64,000 nucleotides of DNA from a virus: positions 2,293 through 66,292 of the IMG/VR virus record IMGVR_UViG_3300020463_000019, one strand, 5' to 3'. The position numbers and the translations under genes were made by a program. Every line of letters begins with the position of its first letter. Within the stretch, counting starts at the first letter, position 1. The notes beneath the pieces are model-generated. The model ran no database searches and had not been told where the DNA came from. It saw only the letters and a program-made list of their open reading frames with translations. This document shows positions 32,770 to 60,082 of the stretch, piece by piece.

Positions 32770-33507
32770 ATGAAAATAGCAATTTGTTTTAGCGGACAAC
32801 TTAGAGGTTCATGGAGAAAATGTGTGGAAAGTTGGAAGCAAACGTTTGGTCAGCATGAGCTATATTATTTTGGACATACATGGACAACTAGAAGTGCTCC
32901 TAATTTTATTAAAGTAACAAAAGGTATAACAGATTTAGAAACTGTAGAAAATAGAGAAATACAACAACTAAAAAGAGAACTACCGGATATAAAGTTAAAA
33001 GTGGAAGATCAAATTACTTTTACTCCTAACTTAGATCAAGCATTACATGATGTGAACTATCAAAGTCAGTTTTACGGTGTGATGCAAAGTGCAAACCTTA
33101 AACGTAAACTTGAAATTGAAGAAAATCAAAATTTTGATTTATGTGTACGAGCTCGATGGGATACAATGTTTGATGAGGAATGGAATGTGCCTGAGCCAAT
33201 CACTGATCATGCACAAGTAATACATTTAGGATTTGATGCTAACGGACACAGAATGAGAGTTGGTGACATATACTGGCAAGCACCAAGTGAAGAGTTTGAC
33301 TTAATGTGTGATTTTTATAGACACTTTCATAGACATCCTAAAGAATACTTTAACATGAATAACGATTTACATTATGGTCCAGAACATGTATTTGCATACT
33401 ACTTGAAAGAGTGTAATTTAAATTTAACACAAATTTATCCGCCAGTTAAACTTGTGAGACCAAAGCCAGAACATGTGGTAGGAGCAGGTGACTATGAAAC
33501 CGTCTAA
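32770..33507 (+). CDS. Polysaccharide-locus protein, putative glycosyltransferase ('AICFSGQLR' family)
   Basis: 'KIAICFSGQLR..HTW..FDLCVRARWD..PE'. Confidence 0.55.
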   Translation: MKIAICFSGQLRGSWRKCVESWKQTFGQHELYYFGHTWTTRSAPNFIKVTKGITDLETVENREIQQLKRELPDIKLKVEDQITFTPNLDQALHDVNYQSQFYGVMQSANLKRKLEIEENQNFDLCVRARWDTMFDEEWNVPEPITDHAQVIHLGFDANGHRMRVGDIYWQAPSEEFDLMCDFYRHFHRHPKEYFNMNNDLHYGPEHVFAYYLKECNLNLTQIYPPVKLVRPKPEHVVGAGDYETV

Positions 33508-34246
33508 AGTTGCAATTTGTTTCAGTGGTGAACTAAGAACATTTAATGTTGCATTGCCTTTGTTACTAAATGATTTTTTCTGTGATACAAATGCAGACAT
33601 ATTTTTACATACCTGGAATGTTACAGGCGACCATAAACATACAGATCTTGAACTAGCACATCTACAAGCAATAGTGCATAATAGTCATCACAATCTAGTA
33701 CAACTTAAAGTTGATTCACCTATTAATCACAGTGGGCCATTTGGCAGTATGTTGTACAGTATTCAACAAGCAAACTGGATGAAAAGACAACACGAGATAG
33801 AACAACACTTTGATTATGATTTAGTTATAAAATCACGTTACGATATGTTAGTACGTCCAGGTACAAGATTTTATATAACTGACATTACTGATAGAACTTT
33901 ATATTACAGTTTAGGTAATAGAGGTCTAGTACACACTGATGTTGGTAAACACGGACTTAGTGATATTATTTTCTGGGGAGATAGTCCTACAATAGATATT
34001 GCCTGTGACACATACAGACATTACAACTGGAAGGCTTATCCCAGATATTTAGAACTAATGAATGGCAACATGCAGGACCCTAGCGATAGTATGTTAAGTC
34101 CTGGAACATTAATATATCAACGTACACTAAAACGTAATGTTCAAGTAAGACAAATTGAACCTCAGTATAGTGAAACACTATGGCGTTCGAAAGTTGAACA
34201 CCTTGACCCTAACAACAACTTTGATGAAATTAGACAGGCTTATTAA
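33494..34246 (+). CDS. Paralog of the 'AICFSG.LR' putative glycosyltransferase
   Basis: 'KVAICFSGELR..HTW..YDLVIKSRYD'; ATG at 33494. Confidence 0.55.
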   Translation: MKPSKVAICFSGELRTFNVALPLLLNDFFCDTNADIFLHTWNVTGDHKHTDLELAHLQAIVHNSHHNLVQLKVDSPINHSGPFGSMLYSIQQANWMKRQHEIEQHFDYDLVIKSRYDMLVRPGTRFYITDITDRTLYYSLGNRGLVHTDVGKHGLSDIIFWGDSPTIDIACDTYRHYNWKAYPRYLELMNGNMQDPSDSMLSPGTLIYQRTLKRNVQVRQIEPQYSETLWRSKVEHLDPNNNFDEIRQAY

Positions 34247-35092
34247 ATGCATTTATTAACCGCAGGCGACAGTTGGACATTTGGAAGTGAAATTAAAGAT
34301 GATGGTTTACCACACACAGTAAGTGATTGGGATCCAGAAAACAATGCATTTCGTATTCCTAAAATTTGGCCTACACTATTGTCACAAAGATTAAATTGTA
34401 AAGATCATACAAACATAAGTTATCCAGCAAGTAGTAATGATAGAATAGTCAGACATACAATAAGTTGGATTACAGAACACTACCTACATGATAAAAAAGA
34501 TACCAGTGACTTATTTGTTATTGTTGGCTTTACAAGTCCTGAACGCAAAGACTTTTACTACAAAGATCCTGTTGATAGGAATCAACATGGCTGGACAACT
34601 ATTTGGCCTAATCAAACTAATCATGAATATCATCAAAGAGGTATGCAGGCATTCTTTGACAATTATAGAATGTACTTGTGGAACGAAGAAGAATATTTAA
34701 ATCGTTATGTACAACAGGTAACACAACTGCAAAACTTTTTTACTGTACATGGTATCCAATATTATTTCTTCCAAGCATTTTATAATTTAGACGAGACAGG
34801 TATCACACAATGGGTCGACAAAGGTTATATCAACAGTGAAAATGAAAAAATGGTTGTAGGAGAAAGCAACCCACGCTGGCACTTTCATTACAACAATCAA
34901 CCTGATAACTGGATATGGAAACAGGTTAACAGTGAAAGATTTTACGGCTATAATAAAGCACCACATACCTTTCATGGCTTCATTACACAAAATGCAAATG
35001 GTAGAGAAGTAATTGGAGGTATGCATCCTAATCCACATGGACATGTTTTATGGTGCCACGAACTTGGCAGATGTATAGAGGAGTTAATATGA
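34247..35092 (+). CDS. SGNH/GDSL hydrolase-fold protein
   Basis: 'AGDSWTFG', 'SSNDRI', C-terminal 'MHPNPHGH'. Confidence 0.7.
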   Translation: MHLLTAGDSWTFGSEIKDDGLPHTVSDWDPENNAFRIPKIWPTLLSQRLNCKDHTNISYPASSNDRIVRHTISWITEHYLHDKKDTSDLFVIVGFTSPERKDFYYKDPVDRNQHGWTTIWPNQTNHEYHQRGMQAFFDNYRMYLWNEEEYLNRYVQQVTQLQNFFTVHGIQYYFFQAFYNLDETGITQWVDKGYINSENEKMVVGESNPRWHFHYNNQPDNWIWKQVNSERFYGYNKAPHTFHGFITQNANGREVIGGMHPNPHGHVLWCHELGRCIEELI

Positions 35093-35205
35093 AACTACCA
35101 AATAACTTTAGACACTTTTTAACTGTCAATGCATGTATATGGGGATTTCTTATATTTGCATTAATTCTTGCATACTTAAATGATGATAATGCAAAGTTTT
35201 TTTAA
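35089..35205 (+). CDS. 38-aa membrane peptide (not in ORF track)
   Basis: MKLPNNFRHFLTVNACIWGFLIFALILAYLNDDNAKFF; GAGGAG RBS, ATGA overlap upstream, abuts the next ATG. Confidence 0.6.
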   Translation: MKLPNNFRHFLTVNACIWGFLIFALILAYLNDDNAKFF

Positions 35206-35913
35206 ATGATTTTTATTAGTGCTCCATTTGGAAACTACTTACAATTCAAAAATGCAATTAGTGTTGCAGGAACTTTTACTGTATTGCCTCGTAAAGGAAG
35301 ACTAAAACAAATAATAAAAACACTACGTTATGTAAAAACTGATGCTGGCTGGAGTTGGCGAAATAAATTAGGATTACGAAATCCAGGATTGAGTGTTGCA
35401 CAAAGGACCGTAAACTTTGATAAGATCCTTAGTGTTGCCGCAATAGACGAGACAGATTGGACAAGTATATTCAATTCAATTAGTGCAGATCGCAACATAG
35501 AATTAAATGTAAGTTGTCCCAACTTAGATTCACACAATGATACTACTACTTGGCAAGACTTTGATAAGTTTCCACGTAAGATGAGAAACAGATATTGTAT
35601 AGTAAAAATACCTCCTAATGCAACAGAAGAATTTATAGATAACATAGTTGATATGGGTTACAAACAGATACATGCAAGTAACACATTACCCACAGAGAAA
35701 GGTGGACTAAGTGGCAAAATATTAATGCCTCATACACTTGGAATAATTAGATACATAAAACAAAAACATCCTCACATTGAAATAATTGCAGGTGGCGGAA
35801 TCACTACATCCAAAGATGCAAAAATTTATAAGGGTGCAGGAGCAAATCATATAAGTCTAGGTAGCGTATGTTTTACTCCTTGGAAAATAAAAAGGATTAT
35901 AAATGACAGTTGA
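35206..35913 (+). CDS. pyrD: Dihydroorotate dehydrogenase-like FMN enzyme (short)
   Basis: 'NKLGLRNPG', 'ELNVSCPN', 'VKIPP', 'SNT', 'GGLSG', 'IAGGGI'. Confidence 0.7.
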   Translation: MIFISAPFGNYLQFKNAISVAGTFTVLPRKGRLKQIIKTLRYVKTDAGWSWRNKLGLRNPGLSVAQRTVNFDKILSVAAIDETDWTSIFNSISADRNIELNVSCPNLDSHNDTTTWQDFDKFPRKMRNRYCIVKIPPNATEEFIDNIVDMGYKQIHASNTLPTEKGGLSGKILMPHTLGIIRYIKQKHPHIEIIAGGGITTSKDAKIYKGAGANHISLGSVCFTPWKIKRIINDS

Positions 35914-36688
35914 TTTATTAGTAACCTGCGGCGATAGTTTTGCTTGTGGCAGTGGACTACCAGATGAAGATGCATTTGAAAAAAGTTATGCAGGTTTGAC
36001 AGCCAAAGACATTGGAGTAGAACAAAAAGTATTAGCAAGACCAGGTTGTTGTAATTACATAATTTTCTTACAAATTAAATGGGCAATAGAAAATTTAACA
36101 CAAGCAAATAAACCTTTTGTTTTAATTACAATGACTAATGCGGCTAGAACGGCCTGGTACAAGCCTTTCCAAAATAAACCTTCAGGTGTATCACCTAGCA
36201 TTGAACATTTGAATTATCAAGACTATCCTCCTTATGATACGCACACCCGGAAGACTATGCGTAGACCAATACCTGTGCAGACTGATAACAGTCTACAAAG
36301 CGAAACATTAACTAACTTAGATACGTTTCTAGATGAAAGTGCAGTTGCGGCATGGCCACAATTTAGTCACGAACCACAAGCAAGAATTAAAACATTAAGA
36401 GATTGGGTAGCAGACTTTTTTAACTTTGAAATTAAAAATGATTATGACAATGGAATACTAGCACAAGGACACTTGTTGTTGAAGAAACATAATATACCAC
36501 ATTTGTTTATGGGTTGGCAACCACAGTTTGGGGATCTATTACCTGAGGAAAATTATGTAGCAGTTGACTGGGGATATTGGAGTCAAAATTACCCAGACGA
36601 TAGAGGTACAGGACATTGTGATTATCGAGGACACGACTTAGTCTACAAAGAAATCATCAAGAAAGTAAAGGCACAAGTAAATGATTAA
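35903..36688 (+). CDS. SGNH hydrolase-fold protein
   Basis: 'CGDSFACG', 'GCCN', C-terminal 'GHCDYRGH'. Confidence 0.6.
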   Translation: MTVDLLVTCGDSFACGSGLPDEDAFEKSYAGLTAKDIGVEQKVLARPGCCNYIIFLQIKWAIENLTQANKPFVLITMTNAARTAWYKPFQNKPSGVSPSIEHLNYQDYPPYDTHTRKTMRRPIPVQTDNSLQSETLTNLDTFLDESAVAAWPQFSHEPQARIKTLRDWVADFFNFEIKNDYDNGILAQGHLLLKKHNIPHLFMGWQPQFGDLLPEENYVAVDWGYWSQNYPDDRGTGHCDYRGHDLVYKEIIKKVKAQVND

Positions 36689-37427
36689 AACATTATATAC
36701 TAACGGAGATAGTTGGACATTTGGACAAGAACTGAAGGATGATGAAGCAGATCATTTAACACACAAGTTTTATAATAGTTGGCCATGGCATCTAAGTCAG
36801 CATCTTAGAATACCACAACTTGTAAATGATGCACTGGGAGGAACAAGTAACTATCGCATACTAAGACGTACACTTGATTATATTCAAAACTATAAAGGCA
36901 AGTACAAAGAACTAATGGTAGTAGTTGCATGGACAACATATGAAAGAAAAGAAGTACCAGTTGAGATTTTGCGTAAACATAATAACGGGCACACTGCTTG
37001 GGAAGAAAACAATTTAGAATATGTAAGTGTGTTAATGAATAGTGTGCCAGATGTTGACACCGGCGATAGTGTAGTTGATAGAACAATATTAGATTGGCAT
37101 AAAACAAGTACAATGTTAAACAGTCAACAACACAATGCTAAAGAATTTTATAATCAACAATGGACATTAAAACATGTATGTAAAAGTCTAGGCATTAACT
37201 TATTACAATGCTATGCACTTGATAATCCAGAGTTTGCAGGACAAACTGCAAACAAAGAATGGCTTGAACAAATCATGCCTTTGCCCACAAGTTTAAACAG
37301 AATGTTAATGGCGATAGAACACGAACAAGATGTACGAGCACCACTGCGGCACCCTAACGAAGAGGGCCATAAATATATAGCAGAGCAAATACAATCTCAA
37401 ATACCCTTTTTCAAAAATTATACATAA
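36681..37427 (+). CDS. SGNH hydrolase-fold protein
   Basis: 'NGDSWTFG', 'GTSNYRI', 'RHPNEEGH'. Confidence 0.7.
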   Translation: MIKTLYTNGDSWTFGQELKDDEADHLTHKFYNSWPWHLSQHLRIPQLVNDALGGTSNYRILRRTLDYIQNYKGKYKELMVVVAWTTYERKEVPVEILRKHNNGHTAWEENNLEYVSVLMNSVPDVDTGDSVVDRTILDWHKTSTMLNSQQHNAKEFYNQQWTLKHVCKSLGINLLQCYALDNPEFAGQTANKEWLEQIMPLPTSLNRMLMAIEHEQDVRAPLRHPNEEGHKYIAEQIQSQIPFFKNYT

Positions 37428-37568: not shown

Positions 37569-37796
37569 ATGGCTGACATTATAGATTTCAAACCCAAAGA
37601 AACAGTTTACATATTAAATTTTACTAGTCCTAGTCCTGTTAAAATGACAAAGTCAGGAAAAGAAAAAATTGCATTAGAGATTCGTAAGGTTGATGAAAAC
37701 CATGGAGTAGGACAAGCATGGGTACCTGCTTTAAACATTAGAGAAGCAAAGAGCAAACTTTGCAAAATGATAGAAGTGCTAGAGTTTCAAGACTAA
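37569..37796 (+). CDS. Hypothetical protein
   Basis: 75 aa, GGAGG RBS, TAATG-coupled to the next gene. Confidence 0.6.
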   Translation: MADIIDFKPKETVYILNFTSPSPVKMTKSGKEKIALEIRKVDENHGVGQAWVPALNIREAKSKLCKMIEVLEFQD

Positions 37797-38518
37797 TGAA
37801 TATTATAATTGGAATGGCAGGAGCAGGTCGCAGATTTGCTGACAGTGGCTATACTTTACCTAAACCCTTGTGCCGTGTAGGTGATACTACAATGATACAA
37901 AAGGCAGTTGATAGTTTAGGTGTTGAAGGCAAATATATCTTTGTAGTTTTACATGAACACCTATTACAGTACAAATGGTTAGAAGCACACTTGGCAAGTC
38001 TTGCTAGGTACGTTACTATTGTAAAACTTGATGAAGTAACTGAAGGTGCCGCTTGTACTTTACTACATGCAAAACAATACATAGACACAGATGAACCCTT
38101 GATCAGTATTAACAGTGATCAAGTTTTACATTGGGATAGTAAAAAGTTTATAGGCAAGTGCAAGGAAGAACCTGATGTTTCTTGGATAATGACTTATCCA
38201 CATACAGATATCAAACATAGTTTTGTTAAAGTTAATGAGTACGGAGTGGTTATCGAAACTGCTGAAAAAGTTGCTATCAGTGAAATGGCTAGTGTAGGTT
38301 TATATCATTGGAGTAAAGGAAGTTTATTTGTTGAAGGTGCAGAACAAATGATTGCAAACAATGATAAACACAACAATGAATTTTATATTGCACCAGTTTA
38401 CAACTACACAGTCAAAACACATTTAGTGAAGCCGTACCAAGTAGATGCAACTAACTTTAGTCCTGTTGGGACGCCGTCAGACCTTGCAGTATTCAATAAC
38501 AAGTATTACAAAAAGTGA
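37796..38518 (+). CDS. Sugar-phosphate nucleotidyltransferase (NTP_transferase family)
   Basis: True start MNIIIG at 37796; 'MAGAGRRF..PKPL', 'TEGAACT', 'NSDQ', 'EFYIAPVYN', 'GTP'. Confidence 0.8.
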   Translation: MNIIIGMAGAGRRFADSGYTLPKPLCRVGDTTMIQKAVDSLGVEGKYIFVVLHEHLLQYKWLEAHLASLARYVTIVKLDEVTEGAACTLLHAKQYIDTDEPLISINSDQVLHWDSKKFIGKCKEEPDVSWIMTYPHTDIKHSFVKVNEYGVVIETAEKVAISEMASVGLYHWSKGSLFVEGAEQMIANNDKHNNEFYIAPVYNYTVKTHLVKPYQVDATNFSPVGTPSDLAVFNNKYYKK

Positions 38519-38631
38519 AAAAAGATAAACTAGGCACGCAGACTAGACGTCTTAATCGCAAACTTAAACACAAAGCAAAACGCAAAGGCAGAATAGATTT
38601 TAGAACAAATAGACCAGGAAAAAGAAAATGA
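38515..38631 (+). CDS. 38-aa very basic peptide (not in ORF track)
   Basis: GTG start overlaps the upstream stop and TGA overlaps the downstream ATG; MKKDKLGTQTRRLNRKLKHKAKRKGRIDFRTNRPGKRK. Confidence 0.6.
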   Translation: MKKDKLGTQTRRLNRKLKHKAKRKGRIDFRTNRPGKRK

Positions 38632-38882
38632 ATGTTGAAGATTTACAATTCACAAGAGATAAAGATCAAGATATATGGAGAACATATTTAAATATTGGTT
38701 CGTATAAAATGATGATAGGATGGTCAAAGTTTGGCAATGATTACATCATAACAATTACTGAAGATAACAAAATGGTTAATATAGAAAATGTAAACCCAGG
38801 ACCAATGATTACTTCAGGATTATCTAAAGAAGTATGTAATAAAAGAATAGAAAATATGTATGCATATGTGAACGAACAATGA
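38628..38882 (+). CDS. Hypothetical protein
   Basis: 84 aa, coupled at both ends. Confidence 0.55.
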   Translation: MNVEDLQFTRDKDQDIWRTYLNIGSYKMMIGWSKFGNDYIITITEDNKMVNIENVNPGPMITSGLSKEVCNKRIENMYAYVNEQ

Positions 38883-39208
38883 AAAAGTATAAACTAGATG
38901 ATATGAAAGGTGGATGGTTTGTAGGTAACTTTGAACCTAGCGTAATGAAAGCAAACTTTGAAGTTGGAATTCATCGACACACAAAAGGAGAGTTTCATCA
39001 GGACCACTTTCACAAAAAAGGCACTGAAGTAAATGTTATGAGAAAAGGCAAACTAAAGTTAAACGGAGAAATATTTGAACCCGGAGATATTTTTATTCTC
39101 TACCCTTACGAAGTTAGCCAAGTAGAATACCTAACCGATGTTGAACTTACAGTAGTAAGAGATATGAGTGACCCTGACGACAAATATATGTTTGACATTA
39201 AGGACTAA
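38879..39208 (+). CDS. Cupin (RmlC-like) protein
   Basis: 'GWFVGNFEP', 'HFHKKGTE' HxH..E metal motif, 'PGDIF'. Confidence 0.75.
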   Translation: MKKYKLDDMKGGWFVGNFEPSVMKANFEVGIHRHTKGEFHQDHFHKKGTEVNVMRKGKLKLNGEIFEPGDIFILYPYEVSQVEYLTDVELTVVRDMSDPDDKYMFDIKD

Positions 39209-39220
39209 AGAAAGTATAAT
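39192..39220 (+). promoter_or_regulatory. Perfect consensus sigma70 promoter; probably a leaderless transcript
   Basis: TTGACA (39192-97), 17 bp, TATAAT (39215-20); ATG at 39226 with no RBS. Confidence 0.8.
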
Positions 39221-39225
39221 AAAGT

Positions 39226-40371
39226 ATGTTAGATATATACGTTGATAGCGTTGACCCAAATGAATATTTTACAGTAACCTACAAACTTGAAGGTAACGAT
39301 TTAAACAGAGCCGCCTTTGCACTAGCAGTAGGACAAAGTGTAGGTAACCCAAGTGTTCGTAATGAATATGAAACTCCTGAACTTATTGATCAGTATAGTG
39401 CTAAAGTAATTGGCCACCCAGACAAACTTGCAGGAAAGTTATCAGGAATAGTCAAGATTGCTTGGCCATATAGAATTATTGACTGGGAAACAGATGGCAT
39501 AGCACAATTACTTTGTGTTGTAATGGGTGGACAAATGGACATTGATTATATTCACAGGTGCGAATTATTAGAACTAGATATTGATAGAGACTTGTGTGAT
39601 GCAGTGGAACCACGCTACGGACTTAATGGTATGCGACACTTAACAGGCAACTACAACAAACCGTTGCTGGGTAGTATTGTTAAACCTAAAACAGGATTAA
39701 CAGGCAAAGCATTACAAGAAATTGTAAGTGCATTTGTAGAAGGTGGTGTAGACTTTATCAAAGAAGATGAGATTATGGCCAATCCAAGTTGCTTGCCTAT
39801 TAAAGAAAGAATATGGCTAGTAGAAGATGTACTAAAAGGTAGCAACGTTGTTTACTGCTACTGCATCAATGCAGATCCCTTGCATGTATTAGACAGAGCA
39901 AAGATGGTAGCAGACAGAGGTGGTAACGGAGTACACATCAACTTTTGGAGTGGACATGGCGTATACAAAAGTATTAACAAACTTGACTTACCAATATACA
40001 TACACTATCAAAAAAGTGGTGACAAAGTATTAAGCAGTACAAAGAATGCTTATAGAATTGCTTGGCCAGTATTGTGTAAACTTGCAAGCCTCAGTGGAGT
40101 CGATACTATACACACGGGCATGTGGGGTGGATACCTCAGTGACGATGAAAATGAATTGCGGCGGACTATGCTTATGCTAAGTTCAAACAATACTGTACCA
40201 GCATTAAGTTGTGGTATGACTGCTGAACTAATACCTGAAGTAACAAGACGCTTTGGTGTAGACTATCTAGCAAACGTTGGTGGTGCTATACATGAACACC
40301 CAAACGGCTTGACGGCAGGAACAAGAAAATTAAGAGATGCAATTGATAGAGAAGATAGGTCCGTAAGATGA
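39226..40371 (+). CDS. RuBisCO-like protein (form IV RLP)
   Basis: 'KPKTGL', 'GGVDFIKEDE', 'IHTG', 'PALSCG', 'VGGAIHEHP'; several carboxylation residues are substituted. Confidence 0.88.
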   Translation: MLDIYVDSVDPNEYFTVTYKLEGNDLNRAAFALAVGQSVGNPSVRNEYETPELIDQYSAKVIGHPDKLAGKLSGIVKIAWPYRIIDWETDGIAQLLCVVMGGQMDIDYIHRCELLELDIDRDLCDAVEPRYGLNGMRHLTGNYNKPLLGSIVKPKTGLTGKALQEIVSAFVEGGVDFIKEDEIMANPSCLPIKERIWLVEDVLKGSNVVYCYCINADPLHVLDRAKMVADRGGNGVHINFWSGHGVYKSINKLDLPIYIHYQKSGDKVLSSTKNAYRIAWPVLCKLASLSGVDTIHTGMWGGYLSDDENELRRTMLMLSSNNTVPALSCGMTAELIPEVTRRFGVDYLANVGGAIHEHPNGLTAGTRKLRDAIDREDRSVR

Positions 40372-41069
40372 ATTATGCCTTTGATGTAGATGGAACTCTA
40401 GGCGAAGCAAGACAAATTATGGACCCAGACTTTAAGCGTTGGTTCATGCAATGGATGCGTGGTAAGAACGTTTACTTAGTTACTGGCAGCGATCGTGCCA
40501 AAACAGTTGAACAAATTGGCCAAGACCTTGTTGATAGATGTACAATGTCATTTCAATGTGCAGGTAATAGTGTATGGCAAAACGGTGTAGAAGTTTCTAG
40601 CACAAAACTCAATGTGCCGCCAGAGATGATTCACTTTCTGGAAGAAAAGGTTGCCGCTACTAGTTACCCGGATCTCTATGGAAATCATATTGAAATCCGT
40701 CCTGGGCTAATCAACTTTAGTATTGTTGGCCGAAACGCTGTCGGTAACCAGAGAGATGATTATTATACTTGGGATCAAAAACACAAAGAGCGTGAGCAGA
40801 TAGCCGAAGAGTTTAATAATAGATTTATAGGCTTTGAAGCCGAAGTAGGTGGAAATACAAGTTTGGACATACACTTAAAAGGACGTAACAAAGCACAAGT
40901 ATATGATGTTATAGGTGCACCGTTGGTGTTCTTTGGCGATAGAATATTTCCCGGAGGCAATGACTATCCATTGCATTGTAGAATGATTGGTCCACAAGAT
41001 AAAAGTCATCCAGTAACAAGTGCAAGTGAAACTTGGAACTTATTAAAAGAATACTACAACCATGTCTGA
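40368..41069 (+). CDS. HAD-family (eukaryote-type) phosphomannomutase
   Basis: 'FDVDGTL', 'VTGSD', 'EIRPGLINFSIVGRN', 'FFGD..GGNDY'. Confidence 0.8.
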   Translation: MNYAFDVDGTLGEARQIMDPDFKRWFMQWMRGKNVYLVTGSDRAKTVEQIGQDLVDRCTMSFQCAGNSVWQNGVEVSSTKLNVPPEMIHFLEEKVAATSYPDLYGNHIEIRPGLINFSIVGRNAVGNQRDDYYTWDQKHKEREQIAEEFNNRFIGFEAEVGGNTSLDIHLKGRNKAQVYDVIGAPLVFFGDRIFPGGNDYPLHCRMIGPQDKSHPVTSASETWNLLKEYYNHV

Positions 41070-42417
41070 GGGCATTGATCCACATGAGATGAAAGCCAAA
41101 CTCAACAGGATTGGATCCGGATTCTGCCTAGCAAAGTGGACACAACTTACACTAAATTTACAGAATGGTACTGCACACAGTTGCCATCATCCTCCTGTAC
41201 ACAAGATACCTGCAGAAGAATTAAAAGATAATCCAAGCGCCTTACATAATACTAAACACAAAAAAGAACGCAGGAAACAAATGCTCAACGGTGAACGACC
41301 AAGCGAGTGTGACTTTTGTTGGCGAATAGAAGATGCTGACAAAAATGCACTAAGTGATAGGCATTATAAGTCGGCTTTTAGTTGGAGTGCAGACCAGTTT
41401 GATCGTATAGCATACAGCGATTCAACAGTAGACTATCAACCCTCTTATGTGGAAGTAAGTTTTTCACATGCGTGTAACTTTAAGTGTATGTATTGTTCGC
41501 CAAGTATAAGCACAAGTTGGATGAAAGAAGTAAAACAACATGGTGCCTTCCCTACTACTGATCGTTATAATAACATAGAGTGGATAGAGCAAACTGGAAA
41601 GATGCCGATACCAACTCGTGAGTACAATCCTTATGTAGAAGCATTTTGGAAGTGGTGGCCTAGCCTATACAAAAGTTTACATACGTTTCGTATTACTGGA
41701 GGTGAGCCATTGATGAGTAAGGACACGTTCCGTGTTATGGAATGGATACTAGAAACAGCCTCGCCAAATAAAAATCTGTTGTTAGGTATCAATAGTAACT
41801 TTGTTGTTGAACCAAAACTGTTTGAACGTTTTATTAATCTTACACAACAAATGCTTGACAGTAAACGTGTAAGAAAGTTTGAAATTTATACTAGTGCTGA
41901 AGCAAGTGGAGTTCGTGCAGAGTATATTAGATCCGGACTTGACTATCAAAAATTTTTAAGTAACATACATCGTGTGTGCAATTTATTTGGAGCAAGAGAA
42001 GATTTTACACTTACTTTCATGTGTACATACAATGCACTAAGTCTAAGTACGTTTACTGAATGGCTAAAAGATTTAGTTGAAGTTCGTAAGCGTTATGGTC
42101 TGTATAGCATTTATATTGATGTTAGTTATGTACGTTATCCGGACATGATGGATATTAAGATACTTCCTGAATCATTTGAAAAGTATATACATGAGTCTAT
42201 TGCTTATATGGAAGAACAAGAGGCAAACGGATTAATGCACAAAAGCGAAACTGCAAAGTTAAAGCGTATTGTTTCCTATTGGAAAAGTACAAGAACAGTT
42301 AATCAGGATACTCATCAAAGAAACTTTAAAGCATATACTGCGGAACTTGATAAGCGACGCAATACTTTGTTCTCAGATGTTTTTCCGGAATATAGTGCAT
42401 GGTATGACACAATTTAA
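41062..42417 (+). CDS. Radical SAM enzyme with N-terminal Twitch/SPASM-like domain
   Basis: CNFKCMYC, TGGEP; N-terminal C..KW / SCHH / CDFC. Confidence 0.85.
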   Translation: MSEGIDPHEMKAKLNRIGSGFCLAKWTQLTLNLQNGTAHSCHHPPVHKIPAEELKDNPSALHNTKHKKERRKQMLNGERPSECDFCWRIEDADKNALSDRHYKSAFSWSADQFDRIAYSDSTVDYQPSYVEVSFSHACNFKCMYCSPSISTSWMKEVKQHGAFPTTDRYNNIEWIEQTGKMPIPTREYNPYVEAFWKWWPSLYKSLHTFRITGGEPLMSKDTFRVMEWILETASPNKNLLLGINSNFVVEPKLFERFINLTQQMLDSKRVRKFEIYTSAEASGVRAEYIRSGLDYQKFLSNIHRVCNLFGAREDFTLTFMCTYNALSLSTFTEWLKDLVEVRKRYGLYSIYIDVSYVRYPDMMDIKILPESFEKYIHESIAYMEEQEANGLMHKSETAKLKRIVSYWKSTRTVNQDTHQRNFKAYTAELDKRRNTLFSDVFPEYSAWYDTI

Positions 42418-43594
42418 TCAAATTTATATAAATAACATTGTAGATGGTTTAAACGATATGGTTATAGATGCAACGTCTATAACGCCAGCAGTATCAGCTA
42501 CTGGAACAATTTCTATCAAACAAACCTTAAAAAGTCTACTTAAAAATCAAGATAATCCCTATTTTATTTTAAATGGGCCATGCGAATGGTTTGAGTCTTG
42601 GTCGGATTCTAGGATTAACTTCTCAGGCCAAACAGTTGATTTCTTCTTATATGAAGTTTTGCATGTTTGGAATAACAACAAAAGATGGGATTGCCCGGAA
42701 GGTGTTATAAATGAAGATTGTGTTATCAACGAGTTTGAAATGGTCGATCGTTGGTGCAAAAAACATAATTGTTCATATAGGATATTTGTTAACGAATTTA
42801 ACATGCTCCAATCACTCCAAAATACAAAATACGCTAACCGGGCAATCCAACACTTAGATACTTTTAGTCTAGCATATTATACAAACATTAAAGATGCTGA
42901 CACAACAAATCTAAAACATAATATTTCATATAAACTAAATTGCTTTACATATCGATGGGATCAGATTCGAATGTTAGCATCAGCATGGCTTACAGGAAGA
43001 AATGATTGTATAGTCACACACTATCACAAAACTGCCGGGGTTAAATACAAGTGGCCAATTAAGGATAGCATACATTGGCAAAAATTAATTAACAAAAGAA
43101 ACTTACTACAATGTATTGGTCCTCTTGCCCTTGAGAAACATTTAACAGAAAAGTTTGACCCAGCAGAGCATGTGTTGCCAGTTACAAAAGAACACTTAAC
43201 TACAGACTCAATTGAGGACTACTACCTTAAAAGTTTTGCTAGTTTAGTATGTGAAACAAACTACGAATATCCATGGGGACAACTAAGCGAAAAAACTATT
43301 AACGCTATACGATTTGAAAATGCATTCATATTACTTGCAGGGCCTGGTAGTTTGGAACAAGCAAAGTCCTGGGGCTTTAAAACTTTTAACCAATGGTGGG
43401 ATGAAAGTTATGATACAATAATCAATCCATGTCAGCGTATGGACGCAGTATTAAACATAGTTGATACTATTTTGAATTATACATATGACGAGCTCCAAGA
43501 AATTAAAAAGCAAATGGCTCCTACACTTTTACATAATAGAAATATAATTCGCACAGGTGAGTTAAGACAAAACATAATGAAGGAAATAATATGA
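42404..43594 (+). CDS. Putative GT-B-like glycosyltransferase
   Basis: Likely start MTQFNQ at 42404; C-terminal 'LVCET..LSEKT..GFKTF..WWDESYD' resembles the GT10-type 'TEK' region. Confidence 0.45.
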   Translation: MTQFNQIYINNIVDGLNDMVIDATSITPAVSATGTISIKQTLKSLLKNQDNPYFILNGPCEWFESWSDSRINFSGQTVDFFLYEVLHVWNNNKRWDCPEGVINEDCVINEFEMVDRWCKKHNCSYRIFVNEFNMLQSLQNTKYANRAIQHLDTFSLAYYTNIKDADTTNLKHNISYKLNCFTYRWDQIRMLASAWLTGRNDCIVTHYHKTAGVKYKWPIKDSIHWQKLINKRNLLQCIGPLALEKHLTEKFDPAEHVLPVTKEHLTTDSIEDYYLKSFASLVCETNYEYPWGQLSEKTINAIRFENAFILLAGPGSLEQAKSWGFKTFNQWWDESYDTIINPCQRMDAVLNIVDTILNYTYDELQEIKKQMAPTLLHNRNIIRTGELRQNIMKEII

Positions 43595-44736
43595 ATATTG
43601 GATGGCTTGGATTAGGCAAGTTAGGTATGCCTTGTGCAGAAGTTATAGCAGACAAAGGGCATAGTGTATTTGGATATGATGTAGAACCAGTAAAGAGTAA
43701 AAAGGTTACAGTCGTAGATCATCCTAGTAGAGCAGTACGTGATATGGATTTTGTTTTTGTTGCAGTACAAACTCCACATGATCCACTATACGGTGGAGAA
43801 CAACCAATTACACATTTACCAAACAAAGACTTTGGACTCGACAGTGTTAAAGAAGTATTAAGTACTATTGATGCATATGCAACAAAAGATACTATTGTTG
43901 TATTGATTAGTACAGTATTACCTGGCACTACTAGGCGTGAGTTTGCAAATTTAATTACCAAAGGTAGACTGATTTACAATCCATACTTAATTGCAATGGG
44001 TACAGTAGAATGGGATATGGTTAATCCAGATATGGTTATTGTTGGTGGTGAAAAGCCTAATGATACTGATGCTAAAAAATTAATAAAATTTTATAAAACT
44101 ATAATGGAAAATGATCCACACTATAACATTGGTACTTGGGAAGAAGGTGAAGCAACAAAAATATTCTACAATACATTTATCAGTGCAAGACTTAGTTTGG
44201 TTAATATGATACAAGACGTTGCACAACGTACAGGTAATATGAATGTTGATGTAGTAACAAACAGTTTATCAAATGCAGGCAAACGTATTACAAGTGCCGC
44301 ATATATGAAAGCAGGAATGGGTGATGGTGGCCCATGTCATCCTAGAGATAATATAGCATTAAGATGGTTAGCAGATAGATTAGATTTAGGATATAATTTA
44401 TTTGATGCTATTGCACATAGTAGAGAAGTACAAGCAAAGCACTTGGCTACAGAACTATTAAAGCATAGTCCTCGTATTGCATTAACAAGTACAAGTTACA
44501 AAGATAGTGTAGAAATTGAAACAGGAAGTTATGCACTATTAGTTGCACATTATGTAAAAGAACAAGGTGGACTGATTGTTGATATTGATAATATGGCAGG
44601 AGTCATACTTCGCGTACATGAAAAAGATAAATTCAAAACAAAAGACTTTGACATTGTAGTAGATCCATGGCGTACATATAAATCAACAAACCCAACAGTA
44701 AAGGTTATACACTATGGTAATACTAGACAAGTATGA
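43591..44736 (+). CDS. ugd: UDP-glucose/GDP-mannose 6-dehydrogenase family
   Basis: 'GLGKLG', 'VQTP', 'STVLPG', 'KIFYN', 'GDGGPCHPRD'. Confidence 0.85.
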   Translation: MNIGWLGLGKLGMPCAEVIADKGHSVFGYDVEPVKSKKVTVVDHPSRAVRDMDFVFVAVQTPHDPLYGGEQPITHLPNKDFGLDSVKEVLSTIDAYATKDTIVVLISTVLPGTTRREFANLITKGRLIYNPYLIAMGTVEWDMVNPDMVIVGGEKPNDTDAKKLIKFYKTIMENDPHYNIGTWEEGEATKIFYNTFISARLSLVNMIQDVAQRTGNMNVDVVTNSLSNAGKRITSAAYMKAGMGDGGPCHPRDNIALRWLADRLDLGYNLFDAIAHSREVQAKHLATELLKHSPRIALTSTSYKDSVEIETGSYALLVAHYVKEQGGLIVDIDNMAGVILRVHEKDKFKTKDFDIVVDPWRTYKSTNPTVKVIHYGNTRQV

Positions 44737-45232
44737 GTACGAACCATTAACATTCACACCCACCTGGGATGATGAATTTAAAAAATTTCCTTACAAGAGA
44801 CAACCGTTTGGTGATTTTGATCAGTTAGCAAAATGGCATAGATTAGGATTTACACATAAAAACTTTACAGGTGAAATGTGTCCTGATCAAAGTATTACAC
44901 CAGAATGGGCAAAAAATATTGGTAAGGTTCTTGCCTGGAAGGATTGTGGTTATACTTTCTATCGTATGCAAGTTGGTGATATACTTCCGCCACATGCAGA
45001 TCATTTTAACAAGTACAAGGAACTATTTCATATTGCAGACAGTGAAGATGTAATGCGTTGTATAGTTTTCTTGGAGGATAAAAAACCAGGACACATGAGT
45101 GAGTTTCAAGGACTAGGCGTAGGTGATTGGCACCGAGGAGATGCAATTGCTTGGAGAGGAACTGTAGAACACAGTGCATTGAATATAGGATATGAACCAA
45201 GATACACATTACAAATTACTGGACATGCTTGA
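44714..45232 (+). CDS. 2OG-Fe(II) dioxygenase-like
   Basis: 'PPHAD' HxD, distal 'EHSALN', 'RYTLQITG'. Confidence 0.7.
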   Translation: MVILDKYEYEPLTFTPTWDDEFKKFPYKRQPFGDFDQLAKWHRLGFTHKNFTGEMCPDQSITPEWAKNIGKVLAWKDCGYTFYRMQVGDILPPHADHFNKYKELFHIADSEDVMRCIVFLEDKKPGHMSEFQGLGVGDWHRGDAIAWRGTVEHSALNIGYEPRYTLQITGHA

Positions 45233-45923
45233 GTATGATGAACTTGATATATTAAAACGCATGGGTTATACATGGAATGACCCGTACGATATTATATACA
45301 AGTTTGAAGATGCATTGTCTGAATATACTAAAGCACCTTATGTTGTGACAACAGATTGTTGTACACATGCAATGGAGTTATGTTTTCGTTGGCTGGCTTA
45401 TAATAATCAAATGCCAGCACAGGTAACAATACCTGAACATACATATCTTAGTGTTCCAATGATGTTAGCCAAACTTGATATTAAATTTAATTTTACACAA
45501 AATAATTGGTTAGGCGAATATCAATTAAGTGGTAGTCCTATATGGGATAGTGCAAGGTTATTAGCAGAAGGTATGTATAAACTACCTGGCTACTATCAAT
45601 GTTTAAGTTTTGGAATAGGAAAACCATTGACAATTGGTCGCGGAGGTGCTATACTATTAGATAGTAAAGAAGCCTATGAATGGCTTAGTCGTGCAAGAAG
45701 CGACGGTAGAGATTTAAAAATAAAACCATGGAACAATCAAACATTTGATTTCATTGGTTATCATTATAATATGACAGTAGAACAAGCCGCAAAAGGTTTA
45801 ATCATGTTGGATACATATGAAACTAACTTTGACTTCTTTGAAGACCCAATGTTACTATATCCAAATTTAAGTGAATGCGTAGGTGAAATAAATGATCATA
45901 CAGACACACAACGAATGGGATAA
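45225..45923 (+). CDS. DegT/DnrJ/EryC1/StrS PLP aminotransferase (short)
   Basis: 'CCTHAMEL', 'WDSA', 'LSFGIGKPLTIGRGGAIL' (PLP Lys); start is 45225 or 45192. Confidence 0.8.
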   Translation: MLEYDELDILKRMGYTWNDPYDIIYKFEDALSEYTKAPYVVTTDCCTHAMELCFRWLAYNNQMPAQVTIPEHTYLSVPMMLAKLDIKFNFTQNNWLGEYQLSGSPIWDSARLLAEGMYKLPGYYQCLSFGIGKPLTIGRGGAILLDSKEAYEWLSRARSDGRDLKIKPWNNQTFDFIGYHYNMTVEQAAKGLIMLDTYETNFDFFEDPMLLYPNLSECVGEINDHTDTQRMG

Positions 45924-46899
45924 ACTAAACAGTATCGTATTAGGAGATGTTGCAGGAGCAAGGTTTCCAAAATATGATGATGTGTTTACTCGAGTAGCCA
46001 AAGGAAGTTCTTGGACTGAAACTGCACAACCTGTAGGTCCTATTAGCCAAGTAGTTATAGAAGAAACTAAAGTAGAATTAGACTTTATGAAACAAACACT
46101 TGAACAAGCAGGTGTTACTGTATACCGTCCAAGGCAATTAGACTTTCAGCAAGTTGTGCATGGTTATAGATACTTCAGTGATGGTATGTATAATTATTGT
46201 CCACGAGATGTAATATTAATTATAGGCAACTATGTAATTGAAACTCCTTGCTTATTTCATAGTAGACAACATGAAGGTGAAGCATACCGAGATATACGCT
46301 ACAGTGGATTAGAACAAGGTTGTAAATGGATCAGTGCTCCTCAGCATAACTTACCTGCTCATGAAGTATTTGATGCTGATGGTAACCTAACTGAAAAGAC
46401 CCCAATCTTTGATGCGGCTAATGTAATGCGTTTTGGAAAAGATATATTATATTTAAAAAGTCAAACAGGGAATGCCGCTGGTGCTAGATGGCTTAGTACA
46501 GTACTAGGATCTGAATATACTGTACATGTATGGGATAAAGTATATGCATACGCACATATTGACAGTACTATTTCCGCACTCAATGAAGAAACTATTTTAC
46601 TTAACAAACCAAGAATTAAAACTGCTGGGCAACTTCCTAAGTTTCTTAGACAGAAAAAGAAAATATGGCTGAGCGAAATTGAGCATACTGACTTCCATGT
46701 TTATCCTTATGCAAGTAAATGGATTGGAATGAATGTGCTTAGTATTAATCCAACTACTGTGATGGTAGATCCAAGACAAACATCATTAATCAAAAGATTA
46801 GAAAAAGAAAAGTTTGATATTGCACCAGTGCAACTAACACATAGTAGAACACTTGGTGGTGGACATCATTGTTGTACATTAGACTTACACAGAGGATAA
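45892..46899 (+). CDS. Amidinotransferase (glycine/inosamine-phosphate amidinotransferase family)
   Basis: 'HNEWDKL', 'CPRD', 'FDAAN', 'HID', 'GGGHHC' (Asp-His-Cys triad). Confidence 0.85.
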   Translation: MIIQTHNEWDKLNSIVLGDVAGARFPKYDDVFTRVAKGSSWTETAQPVGPISQVVIEETKVELDFMKQTLEQAGVTVYRPRQLDFQQVVHGYRYFSDGMYNYCPRDVILIIGNYVIETPCLFHSRQHEGEAYRDIRYSGLEQGCKWISAPQHNLPAHEVFDADGNLTEKTPIFDAANVMRFGKDILYLKSQTGNAAGARWLSTVLGSEYTVHVWDKVYAYAHIDSTISALNEETILLNKPRIKTAGQLPKFLRQKKKIWLSEIEHTDFHVYPYASKWIGMNVLSINPTTVMVDPRQTSLIKRLEKEKFDIAPVQLTHSRTLGGGHHCCTLDLHRG

Positions 46900-46900
46900 T

Positions 46901-48412
46901 ATGAGAGTACTAGGAGTAAGTGCAGGCTTTCATGATGCAGGATTATCAGTTATTGCTGATGGCGAAATACTATTTGCAGGACATAGTGAAAGATATAGCA
47001 AACAAAAACACGATCATCATTTATGTCCAGAAATTGTTACAAAGGCATTGGACTCTGTGTTTCCGTCTGAGATTGATGCTATTGCTTATTACGAAACACC
47101 ATGGCTTAAAAAGACAAGAGAAATATATGCAGGGCAAGGCATTGAAGGCGGTGATAGAAGTAGCACATGGACTACTAAGGGTGCATTGAAAAAAGAGTTT
47201 GGAGACTTGTTACCTAACGCACCAGTGCATACATACCGGCATCATCATACACATGCCGCCGCTGGCTTTCAAACAAGTCCTTTCAAAGACGCAACAGTTG
47301 TTGTCATTGACGCTATAGGTGAATGGGAAACTATTACAATATGGTACGCATACTATGATAACAAAGGTCGTGCGTGTTATGAAAAGTTGTGGCGACAACG
47401 TTATCCACATAGTATTGGATTGTATTATAGTGCAATGACCGCACGACTTGGATTACGTCCACTTGATGAAGAATATATTATGATGGGTATGGCTGGTTGG
47501 GGTACTGCTAGTGGTTTAAATGAAAACTTGATTGAAAGTGAATTTGTACATGATATGGCAACACTACGTTTCAAACAAAATTTACACGCTGGCATTGACA
47601 AAAACTTTATGATCAATATGAATGAATATGATATTGCCGCTAGAGCTCAGTATAGTGTTGAAAAAATGATAGACAATGTAATGTCAAGAGCAAGAGGCTT
47701 TAATAAAAGTCGTAACCTAGTTTATATGGGAGGAGTTGCACTTAACTGTTTATACAATCGCAAACTAGGAGACTTCTTTGACGATATATGGATTATGCCA
47801 AACCCTGGAGATTGTGGAAGTAGTTTAGGTGCCGCGGCACTTACATATGGCAAAAAAATTGAATGGGATAATCCTTACTTAGGAACATTCATATATGGAC
47901 CTTATCCTATCAGAGACTTGATAGATGAACTACAAACAAATAAAATTGTAGGAGTAGCAAACGGAAGAGCAGAGTTTGGACCAAGAGCGTTAGGCAATAG
48001 AAGTTTACTAGCCGATCCACGGGGTCCTGAAATTAAAGATAAAGTAAACGAAATAAAACGTAGACAAAAGTTTAGACCGTTTGCTCCTATGATTCTCGAA
48101 GAGCATGTACATGAATACTTTGACATGCCTGAGAAAACACCTACGTCGCCTTATATGCAAGTAGTTGCCAGATGTAAAAAGCCAGACGAGTTTCCTGCAA
48201 TTATACACGTTGACGGAACTAGCAGAGTACAAACAGTTGGCAAAGGTTGTTATGGCAGTGGTGTACGTTATTTACTAGAACAATGGTATGTGTTAACAGG
48301 TTGTCCTATGTTGCTTAACACAAGTTTAAATATCAGAGGGGAGCCAATGGTTGATACAAGAGAAGATGCAGATAGATTTGAAAAAGAGTATGGAGTAAAA
48401 GTATGCAGTTAG
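46901..48412 (+). CDS. Carbamoyltransferase (NodU/CmcH/TobZ family)
   Basis: 'FHDA', 'HHHTHAA', 'DAIGE', 'GGVALNC', 'EFGPRALGNRS', 'RPFAP', 'LNTSLN'. Confidence 0.9.
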   Translation: MRVLGVSAGFHDAGLSVIADGEILFAGHSERYSKQKHDHHLCPEIVTKALDSVFPSEIDAIAYYETPWLKKTREIYAGQGIEGGDRSSTWTTKGALKKEFGDLLPNAPVHTYRHHHTHAAAGFQTSPFKDATVVVIDAIGEWETITIWYAYYDNKGRACYEKLWRQRYPHSIGLYYSAMTARLGLRPLDEEYIMMGMAGWGTASGLNENLIESEFVHDMATLRFKQNLHAGIDKNFMINMNEYDIAARAQYSVEKMIDNVMSRARGFNKSRNLVYMGGVALNCLYNRKLGDFFDDIWIMPNPGDCGSSLGAAALTYGKKIEWDNPYLGTFIYGPYPIRDLIDELQTNKIVGVANGRAEFGPRALGNRSLLADPRGPEIKDKVNEIKRRQKFRPFAPMILEEHVHEYFDMPEKTPTSPYMQVVARCKKPDEFPAIIHVDGTSRVQTVGKGCYGSGVRYLLEQWYVLTGCPMLLNTSLNIRGEPMVDTREDADRFEKEYGVKVCS

Positions 48413-58562: not shown

Positions 58563-58567
58563 ATACT

Positions 58568-59418: not shown

Positions 59419-59426
59419 ATAAGTGT

Positions 59427-60079: not shown

Positions 60080-60082
60080 TTA

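Follow-up and report, generated by a model that had tools for sequence, protein, structure and literature searches.

Introduction

RuBisCO-like proteins (RLPs) as such have been known in phages since 2018. About 80 non-redundant 'Form IV-like' RLPs were then described on putative phage contigs, some of which belonged to Myoviridae and one of which was a curated genome of about 200 kb; these sequences grouped with Beckwithbacteria, were placed as an outgroup to all RLPs, and had their function left open in the main text of the paper (Jaffe et al. 2018; PMC6389311). New groups had also been noted in an ocean-metagenome survey, with 65 RuBisCO homologues falling into them (Yooseph et al. 2007; PMC1821046). 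Here we describe the RLP of 381 aa that is encoded at positions 39226..40371 (+ strand) of a 64,000-nucleotide stretch of viral DNA, hereafter called the window, which covers positions 2,293 to 66,292 of the IMG/VR record IMGVR_UViG_3300020463_000019. To our knowledge, all RLPs with an assigned function act in salvage or catabolism. The data presented below make it probable, at roughly 0.6, that the RLP of the window is an enolising isomerase or epimerase acting on a phospho-ketose which feeds a neighbouring nucleotidyltransferase (NT), and that the pair supplies an activated rare sugar for a glycan.

Fold and active site of the RLP

The RLP matched PF00016 with an E value of 1.6e-32 (113.4 bits, with a cut-off of 30.1). 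The closest solved structure was that of the Pyrococcus horikoshii form III RuBisCO 2cwx (E 4.7e-31), and further solved relatives were the Alicyclobacillus RLP 4nas and the Geobacillus enolase 2oej. The AlphaFold (AF2) model built from 47 homologues had a pLDDT of 93, and Foldseek aligned it with a TM score of 0.88 to 2d69/2cwx and 0.84 to a Geobacillus RLP. With its N-domain and TIM-barrel fold and its match to PF00016, the protein belongs to the RuBisCO large-subunit superfamily.

In RuBisCO, the carbamylated K201 together with D203 and E204 binds Mg2+, and K175 and the carbamate act in enolisation. Glycines 381, 403 and 404 (G381, G403, G404) hold the phosphate near the carbonyl, while CO2 addition, hydration and cleavage depend on K334, E60, N123 and H294. 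The comparison of the RLP with 2cwx using HMMER, and a separate 117-row alignment, showed that K175, K177, K201, D203, E204, H327, S379, G381 and G403/G404 are retained. Both alignments also gave the same replacements, which were E60->G, T65->N, W66->P, N123->G, H294->Q, R295->K, H298->D and K334->Y, and the C-terminus is about 30 residues shorter than that of 2cwx. An earlier note on this DNA, made by eye, had listed the KPK and KEDE motifs, H327 and S379 as present and E60, H294, R295 and K334 as replaced by G, Q, K and Y, and every one of these assignments was reproduced. Since E60, N123, H294 and K334 are replaced, the RLP is not a carboxylase, and its residue pattern excludes it from the carboxylating RuBisCOs of forms I-III.

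All six NCBIfam models of RuBisCOs and RLPs scored the protein far under their cut-offs. The scores and cut-offs were 133.6 and 497 for form III, 129.5 and 409 as well as 101.3 and 513.6 for the two MtnW/YkrW models, and 115.6 and 700 for OiaX, and the scores with the large-subunit and form II models were likewise far too low; hence the protein falls outside every RLP family that has an NCBIfam model. Judged by its kept metal site, its missing carboxylase residues and its branching outside the form II and form III rows of the tree described below, it is a form IV RLP in the broad sense. The residue pattern, the tree and the NCBIfam scores thus bear out the view of the earlier note that this is a phage-borne protein of form IV type and not a carboxylase.

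The same pattern was found throughout the clade of the RLP. All 62 aligned members retain K175, K177, K201, D203, E204, S379, G381 and G403, and all 62 have G and Q at E60 and S61, Q at H294 and Y at K334. N123 is replaced by G in 61 of the 62 and G380 by C in 60, while position 295 is occupied by K or R in 59 and H327 is retained in 55. The retained set is invariant and the replacements are nearly so, which points to a re-tuned active site rather than to decay. The hydrophobic P2 pocket of MtnW (R295->P, H327->L) was not seen in the clade, which has the polar K/R295 and H327 instead. Such a polar distal pocket suggests that the substrate of the RLP is hydroxylated or doubly charged.

Phylogeny and distribution of the clade

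A word-indexed search with the RLP gave 2,323 homologues at E <= 1e-5, the best 120 of which were 372-407 aa long and at least 51% identical to it. An exhaustive search of representatives at 50% identity gave 1,011 matches, 89 of which were given NCBIfam labels, and the scores showed a gap between a close group, extending to about 1e-48 (at least 33% identity), and the plateau of ordinary RuBisCOs and RLPs at about 1e-32. Gene neighbourhoods were sampled at 126 loci, compared with roughly 2,300 homologues. These comprised the best 80 of the 182 IMG/VR stretches encoding a relative of the RLP, with flanks of up to 8 kb, and 46 cellular loci from a scan of one genome per prokaryote species.

The phylogeny was obtained by a quick IQ-TREE search (LG+G4) of the 117 rows, rooted on a single form II row and containing no form I row. 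The 62 close rows were the RLP of the window, 20 of the 80 viral loci, 21 of the 46 cellular loci and 20 close representatives, and the 55 distant rows were 3 MtnW, 11 MtnW-like, 12 form III-like, 1 form II, 12 OiaX-like and 16 other sequences. The close rows formed one clade (SH-aLRT 99), which was separate from the MtnW and MtnW-like rows (support 99), from the OiaX-like rows (100) and from the form III rows. The sister of the clade was a set of four unnamed representatives (support 94), and the clade was nested, with moderate support, among form IV rows, with a deep placement that is uncertain given the one-row root and the missing form I. Viral and cellular rows were intermixed within the clade, and the viral label needs nine changes on the tree, at least four of which are forced by well-supported branches. 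One viral RLP (L020) grouped with two from Pelagibacter (L093 and L087; support 99), which are encoded by a complete chromosome and by a SAR11 single-cell genome. This suggests a recent exchange between phage and host and a SAR11 host for the L020 lineage.

The cellular carriers of the clade include, besides the complete Pelagibacter chromosome, several SAR11 single-cell genomes, Azospirillum oleiclasticum, Legionella nautarum, L. maceachernii and L. drozanskii, Turneriella and Verrucomicrobiae chromosomes, Beckwithbacteria (L090, a metagenome-assembled genome, MAG) and other bacteria of the candidate phyla radiation (CPR), as well as DPANN archaea.

On the viral side, the source record is a virus contig of 66,292 bp, estimated to be 19% complete. 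Baseplate hub and wedge proteins, a PAAR protein and a virion protein of 4323 aa are encoded at 1-28 kb of the window, and only five open reading frames (ORFs) of at least 125 aa lie off the main strand, which all the others share. By its baseplate, PAAR and giant virion-protein genes and the IMG/VR record, the window is a fragment of a large T4-like phage. The giant protein is a single ORF (10054-23025) matching the virion structural family phrog_10938 and, near residue 3300, a head-closure family. Searches of the 50,697 deposited phage genomes of INPHARED, by blastn with the region and by tblastn with the RLP, gave no match, hence no deposited isolate phage has a relative that these searches detect. 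A cyanophage origin, suggested by the fact that 172 of 281 baseplate matches were to Synechococcus phages, was set aside; the top matches of the baseplate-wedge proteins were jumbo phages of Rhizobiales and enterobacteria (about 36% identity), and none of five large RLP-bearing relatives had a psbA-type gene.

Three other natural fusions were seen among the homologues. A protein of 583 aa (P0227), which lies outside the NT-linked clade, has an N-terminal TIR domain (PF13676, 3.3e-13) fused to a full RLP (PF02788 and PF00016), and two others (P0158, 726 aa; P0172, 742 aa) have a domain resembling IF-2B and ribose-1,5-bisphosphate isomerase joined to a form III-like RuBisCO. The latter would presumably unite two consecutive steps of the archaeal AMP pathway in one polypeptide.

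Nucleotidyltransferase partner of the RLP

The ORF list contains three closely packed + strand ORFs in 38879-41069, with the RLP gene in the middle, and just upstream of this span is an ORF (37760..38518, + strand) for a protein resembling sugar-1-phosphate nucleotidyltransferases. It matched the NCBIfam model Arch_glmU (4.6e-11, far beneath the cut-off) and the structure 4evw (1.1e-11). The alignment with its homologues begins at residue 13, which makes the ATG near 37796 the probable true start. The signature residues G21, G23, R25 and K35 are invariant in the alignment of the family. All 41 aligned members matched rmlA_long and Arch_glmU weakly, every score being under the cut-off, and a part of them also matched inositol-1-P cytidylyltransferase (21/41) or IspD (4/41). 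By these matches, the family resembles sugar-1-phosphate nucleotidyltransferases.

In profile searches of all ORFs, which are the basis of the 80-locus presence counts for the NT and for the cupin, p142 and phosphomannomutase described below, the NT was found in 79 of the 80 viral loci, and in the sole locus without it (L004) the contig already ends 1.1 kb upstream. The distance to the RLP gene is at most 500 bp in 60 of the 79, and the two genes share a strand in 76. The two proteins also occur as a natural fusion. In a protein of 667 aa (P0124), the N-terminal RLP is 47% identical to that of the window, and the C-terminal NT is 38% identical to the window NT (E 4e-54). Its cluster at 90% identity, of which it is the representative, has 128 members; among the 15 that are listed, 12 are 667-671 aa long, and these come from several independent sources (ENA, JGI, Tara and MGnify). 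The covalent fusion and the near-obligate adjacency suggest that RLP and NT act in one pathway. A prediction of the RLP-NT complex scored 0.00 without controls and counts neither for nor against binding.

Conserved neighbours and glycan context

The ORF directly upstream of the RLP (38879..39208, + strand) encodes a small monocupin of 109 aa, which matched phrog_24762 (3.4e-33) and gave no Pfam match, the models of phosphomannose isomerase (PMI) included. A profile of 40 homologues matched quercetinase/quercetin dioxygenase (4.5e-6), and Cupin_2 and mannose-6-phosphate isomerase (both at about 7e-4), and the H-x-H...E of cupin motif 1 (H43, H45, E50) is invariant. The cupin was found in 58 of the 80 viral loci, in 53 of these within 500 bp of the RLP. 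An unrelated family of 242 aa (c10), with many conserved Cys and His residues and no Pfam match, was found in 17 loci, none of which has the cupin, and five loci have neither. This mutual exclusivity may reflect non-orthologous replacement.

The fourth recurrent gene encodes a minimal protein of 142 aa (p142; 32071..32499, + strand) with a GDPD/PLC-like phosphodiesterase fold. In the window it is 7 kb upstream of the RLP, while in most relatives it adjoins the RLP or the NT, and it is present in 66 of the 80 viral loci. Its conserved motifs HRG, EN, ExD and GHD are those of glycerophosphodiester phosphodiesterases (GDPDs). Its profile matched the GDPD 7e0v (E 6.8e-5) and it did not match the Pfam GDPD model; its AF2 model (pLDDT 96.6) had GDPDs as top Foldseek matches, which were weak (best E 8.9e-4, TM by query 0.35-0.55). 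The protein has 142 aa, compared with about 230 aa for the full (beta/alpha)8 barrel of a GDPD.

The 46 cellular loci contain the RLP ORF in 44, the NT in 41, p142 in 26 and the cupin in 13 cases. The four genes form a compact operon, in the order p142-RLP-cupin-NT, in the cultured A. oleiclasticum and in an Elusimicrobia MAG. In A. oleiclasticum (L126:3891-11480), the operon is directly followed by CysD, CysN/C (a fusion of CysN and APS kinase) and a protein with GT41 and TPR domains, and the CysD/CysN neighbours hint at a sulfated product in that bacterium. A Woesearchaeota MAG has a full-length PF03009 GDPD in the place of p142. LicD homologues were found in four Legionellaceae loci, all of which are without p142, and in L. 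nautarum the LicD gene (PF04991, 1e-42) is divergent and adjoins the RLP-NT pair. Glycan genes near the cellular RLPs include Bac_transf, GT2 and GtrA in a Francisellaceae genome, five GT2 glycosyltransferase (GT) genes in a Patescibacteria MAG, and GT9, GT17 and GT61 in SAR11.

Among the viral loci, 67 of 80 contain at least one Pfam-annotated sugar or glycan gene in addition to the NT. These genes encode glycosyltransferases of families GT1, GT2, GT8, GT11, GT25 and GT61, WavE, GDP-mannose 4,6-dehydratase, DegT, FkbM and CmcI methyltransferases, NeuB, UDP-GlcNAc 2-epimerase and carbamoyltransferase. Many of the loci are also flanked by replication genes of the T4 type (clamp, clamp loader, RegA, RNase H and DnaB). 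The linkage of the homologues to sugar genes, whose absence would have refuted the proposal of the earlier note, was therefore observed for both the NT (79/80) and the further sugar and glycan genes (67/80).

The last of the three packed ORFs (40368..41069, + strand), which overlaps the stop codon of the RLP, encodes a eukaryote-type phosphomannomutase (PMM, HAD-IIB) of 233 aa, with matches to PF03332 (1.3e-24) and to the structure 5ue7 (5.9e-25).

Proposed function and its alternatives

The chemistry, step order, substrate and acceptor proposed here are read from the fold, residue pattern, clade, synteny, fusion and glycan context, which are established. A phosphorylated ketose would be held by the Mg-binding residues (the carbamylatable K201 with D203 and E204), by K175/K177 and by the glycine-rich P1 phosphate site, and the RLP would abstract a proton from it to give an enediolate, much as RuBisCO does in its first partial reaction. 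Since the residues for CO2 addition, hydration and C-C cleavage (E60, N123, H294, K334) are gone, the enediolate would just be reprotonated, and the product would be an epimer or a keto-isomer of the sugar phosphate. The cupin could possibly then interconvert aldose and ketose, and a mutase, such as the PMM of the window, could shift the phosphate. The NT would then couple the product to a nucleotide to give an NDP-sugar, and glycosyl- or phospho-transferases of the cluster would install the unit in a glycan. In the phage, this could serve to remodel the surface of the infected cell or to decorate phage components. The order from ketose phosphate through the RLP, the cupin and the mutase to the NT, the NDP-sugar and the transferases is suggested by the resemblance of the NT family to sugar-1-phosphate nucleotidyltransferases.

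By the same evidence, the RLP and the NT, usually with the cupin and the GDPD-like protein, probably form a small, widely transferred biosynthetic module. More tentatively, and at a little under even odds, the RuBisCO superfamily could have an anabolic branch, in which an RLP-NT pair, sometimes fused, makes an undescribed nucleotide-activated rare sugar or phospho-ketose for the surface glycans of SAR11, Legionellaceae, Azospirillum, CPR bacteria and DPANN archaea, and T4-like phages could have repeatedly exchanged this module with their hosts to re-dress the cell or the virion.

Several observations weigh against this interpretation. The synteny and the fusion show a functional coupling, which does not by itself give the order of the steps or the anabolic direction. 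The cupin cannot be essential because it is missing from 22 of the 80 viral and 33 of the 46 cellular loci, and the role of the GDPD-like p142 does not follow from the model. The earlier note described the RLP as flanked by NT, cupin and PMM; all three are present, the NT just outside the packed span, while the PMM is in the flanks of only 9 of the 80 viral loci and elsewhere in the genome in three of the five large RLP phage genomes, and is thus a local feature outside the conserved core. Since the matches of the NT to named families are far under the curated cut-offs, it could also be a polyol-phosphate or ketose-phosphate nucleotidyltransferase. The Pfam annotation was made for one representative per BLAST cluster, hence the labels of the neighbouring genes are those of representatives. 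Several of the 'cellular' loci are short contigs of MAGs or single-cell genomes, and these could be phage DNA binned with the wrong genome; the doubt does not extend to the isolates and closed chromosomes.

A variant of the proposed pathway, in which the same module has an X-phosphate output, has genuine support even though we regard it as unlikely. The NT would then make an NDP-, probably CDP-, phospho-ketose or polyol, which LicD-type or GDPD-like enzymes would transfer as a phosphodiester decoration and not as a glycosyl residue, and the step of the RLP may precede or follow nucleotidylation. Enzymes of the LicD family use CDP donors to transfer phospho-alcohols, and phosphocholine and ribitol phosphate are decorations of this kind. 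This variant would fit the LicD gene adjoining RLP-NT in L. nautarum, the presence of LicD in four of four Legionellaceae loci, each without p142, the phosphodiester-handling fold of p142, and the matches of NT members to inositol-1-P cytidylyltransferase and IspD. It agrees less well with the presence of LicD in only 4 of the 126 loci and with the best NT matches, which are sugar-1-phosphate enzymes, and GDPDs are known as hydrolases, not transferases. The opposite direction of the pathway appears more doubtful still. In such a catabolic or scavenging route, the module would degrade or divert a sugar phosphate or phosphodiester of the host, in that the GDPD-like protein would free a phospho-alcohol and the RLP would isomerise it to feed the nucleotide or energy metabolism of the phage, with the NT working on an unrelated sugar. 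The salvage and catabolic roles of the characterised RLPs known to us and the degradative nature of GDPD-fold enzymes speak for it, while the RLP-NT fusion and near-obligate adjacency argue for one pathway, and the neighbours are transferases and tailoring enzymes, with no kinases, transporters or dehydrogenases of the catabolic-operon type seen among them.

The recycling of radical S-adenosylmethionine (SAM) by-products, which the earlier note gave as its alternative, is very improbable. The RLP would in that case isomerise 5-deoxy- or 5-methylthio-ribulose-1-phosphate and so recycle or detoxify the 5'-deoxyadenosine formed by radical SAM enzymes. There are at least 10 radical SAM ORFs at 41-64 kb of the window, including a run of at least nine at 50174-63696, after the sugar genes, and 11 Radical_SAM matches were counted in the closest large relative (G001, 306,714 bp); the pairing of an RLP with a cupin also recalls the methylthioadenosine (MTA)-isoprenoid shunt of Rhodospirillum rubrum. 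However, no more than 25 of the 80 viral loci have a radical SAM ORF in their flanks, and the five large RLP phage genomes have 11, 0, 1, 0 and 0 matches, the three of them that are estimated to be 100% complete having none in two cases and one in the third. No isomerase of the IF-2B/MtnA type was found in the record of the window or in any of the five large genomes, and no PNP_UDP_1 gene (MTA phosphorylase or nucleosidase type) in the record. The clade is also apart from the MtnW and MtnW-like rows, with K/R295 and H327 kept in place of the hydrophobic P2 pocket, and salvage would leave no role for the NT linkage and the fusion. Least probable of all, in our view, is an RLP without catalytic activity that would scaffold or regulate the NT. 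The loss of several canonical RuBisCO residues could be taken in this sense, but the metal ligands, K175/K177 and the phosphate glycines are invariant in 62 of 62 members, and the Q294, Y334 and C380 replacements are nearly invariant.

The preferred interpretation is therefore still that of an enolising RLP feeding the NT. It upholds the proposal of the earlier note that the protein acts biosynthetically on a sugar phosphate, to the extent of the linkage to sugar-nucleotide and glycan genes; nothing in the data points to a branched sugar. The branched-sugar and transcarboxylase chemistry mentioned there is disfavoured, since H294 and K334, kept in 12 of 12 OiaX-like rows, are replaced in all 62 rows of the clade. 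If the interpretation is correct, this glycan-wired clade widens the chemistry of the RuBisCO superfamily beyond salvage and catabolism, and the phage 'Form IV-like' RLPs of 2018 gain a function. Among marine heterotrophs, the module is present in the most abundant ones, SAR11, and it is also found in phages with RLPs that group with those of SAR11; hence it may bear on the co-evolution of surface glycans and phage recognition in the ocean. The hypothesis is directly testable, because the operon is present in the cultured A. oleiclasticum and the phage genes are small and soluble-looking.

Other genes of the window

Between the NT and the cupin is an ORF of 84 aa (38628..38882, + strand) with no Pfam, PHROG or NCBIfam match and no BLASTP match at E 1e-5 in the 80 viral loci. 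An ORF of 94-108 aa (cluster c40) takes the same place in the six closest relatives (L002-L007), the likeness being one of position. Upstream, two paralogues of 245 and 252 aa (32770..34246, + strand) belong to a DUF7796-like viral family (cluster c5), which recurs near the RLP in 33 of the 80 viral and 11 of the 46 cellular loci. Their neighbours by Atlas features and structure were DUF7796 and a cluster auto-named 'capsular polysaccharide biosynthesis protein'. The family profile gave matches at chance level only against PDB sequences, and hhalign aligned it with c10 at 94% probability, but over 45 N-terminal columns only.

The following block (34247..37427, + strand) contains two DUF6071 paralogues (34247-35092 and 36681-37427; PF19547, 4.6e-20 and 2e-7), a DHO_dh-like TIM-barrel protein of 235 aa within the glycan cluster (35206-35913; PF01180, 8.9e-19) and an ORF of 261 aa with no assigned family (35903-36688). 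Apart from the DHO_dh-like protein, for which none of the 80 viral loci gave a relative, the block is common only to the closest relatives (11-12 of 80 loci).

Downstream of the PMM, the sugar-tailoring genes at 41062..48412 (+ strand) encode a twitch radical SAM protein, an NDP-sugar dehydrogenase, a short DegT-like protein, an amidinotransferase-like protein and a carbamoyltransferase, and the matches in this group were NF033640 (3e-98), TIGR03026 (2.4e-40), PF01041 and PF16861/PF02543. The short DegT-like protein (232-243 aa; 45192-45923 in the window, L002:14168-14866 in a relative) matches only the middle of the DegT model, at about 165-239, and its conservation in relatives shows that it did not arise by a truncation in this phage alone. 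In three neighbouring radical SAM paralogues (52169-56363), the SPASM iron-sulfur domain (residues about 10-106) is N-terminal to the radical SAM core (about 143-327), which is the reverse of the usual order; the SPASM-first order is also present at a distant RLP-bearing phage locus (L051:12927-13961).

Comparison with known systems

The form III RuBisCO of P. horikoshii (2cwx/2d69) is the top match of the RLP in both sequence and fold, and K177 is common to the RLP and true RuBisCOs. The RLP differs from it in the replaced E60, N123, H294 and K334 and in the shorter C-terminus. The MtnW/YkrW 2,3-diketo-5-methylthiopentyl-1-phosphate enolases of Bacillus and Geobacillus (2oem, 2zvi) share the fold (TM 0.82-0.84). 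Like the RLP, MtnW is non-carboxylating and enolising, and it retains K175, K201, D203, E204 and the P1 phosphate site. It has, however, the replacements K177->V, N123->K, R295->P and H327->L, whereas the phage clade keeps K177, K/R295 and H327 and has N123->G. The identification of the RLP as MtnW/YkrW was rejected on the scores under the cut-offs, the separate clade, the G at N123 and the polar K/R295 and H327. No methionine-salvage genes were seen near the RLP, and no mtn genes were found in the record of the window or in the large RLP phage genomes searched.

The OiaX-type RLPs of apiose catabolism (NF042437), which act on a phosphorylated keto sugar acid, indicate that the scaffold handles substrates other than pentuloses. 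They are catabolic, form a separate clade (support 100), and the OiaX-like rows retain both H294 and K334 (12/12 each), which the phage clade has lost. An assignment of the RLP as a 3-oxo-isoapionate-4-phosphate decarboxylase of this type was rejected on the score of 115.6 against 700 bits, on Q and Y at H294 and K334, and on the separate clade. The RLP of R. rubrum is reportedly, from the 2012 work of Erb and colleagues and of Warlick and colleagues, a 5-methylthioribulose-1-P 1,3-isomerase with a cupin partner. Such a proton-moving RLP beside a cupin-fold enzyme is the closest mechanistic analogy for the isomerase or epimerase proposed here. Its salvage pathway is fed by MtnA and MTA phosphorylase and has no NT, while no genes of the MtnA or MTA phosphorylase type were found in the record of the window.

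On the side of the neighbours, enzymes of the ManC/AlgA type are bifunctional phosphomannose isomerases/GDP-mannose pyrophosphorylases with an NT domain and a cupin domain. The RLP loci are similar, in resemblance only, in that a small cupin succeeds the NT and that some of them also contain PMM and GDP-mannose dehydratase. The difference is that the NT and the cupin are separate genes here, with the RLP alongside, and that the Pfam PMI models miss the cupin.

The group described in 2018 is the nearest to the present one, with which it shares IMG/VR contigs of myoviruses or T4-like phages and the Beckwithbacteria; the phages of 2018 include genomes over 200 kb. By this shared membership, the clade of the window is probably the 'Form IV-like' group of phages and Beckwithbacteria (Jaffe et al. 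2018). The placement is different, as the 2018 group was an outgroup to all RLPs, whereas the present tree nests the clade among form IV rows (support 94). In the main text of that paper, 'nucleotidyl' and 'glycosyl' occur 0 times, and the lone passage with 'sugar' concerns the reductive hexulose pathway (Jaffe et al. 2018). That main text likewise has no description of the synteny with the NT, the cupin and the GDPD-like protein, of a fusion of RLP and NT, or of carriers among SAR11, Legionella, Azospirillum and DPANN archaea. In the full-text literature searched, in which few subscription journals are covered, no paper was found that ties an RLP to a nucleotidyltransferase, a nucleotide sugar or a glycan. 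Hence, compared with the phage RLPs already known, the near-obligate partnership with the NT, the fusion of the two, the cupin and GDPD-like partners, the spread to cultured bacteria and SAR11, and the biosynthetic interpretation appear to be new.

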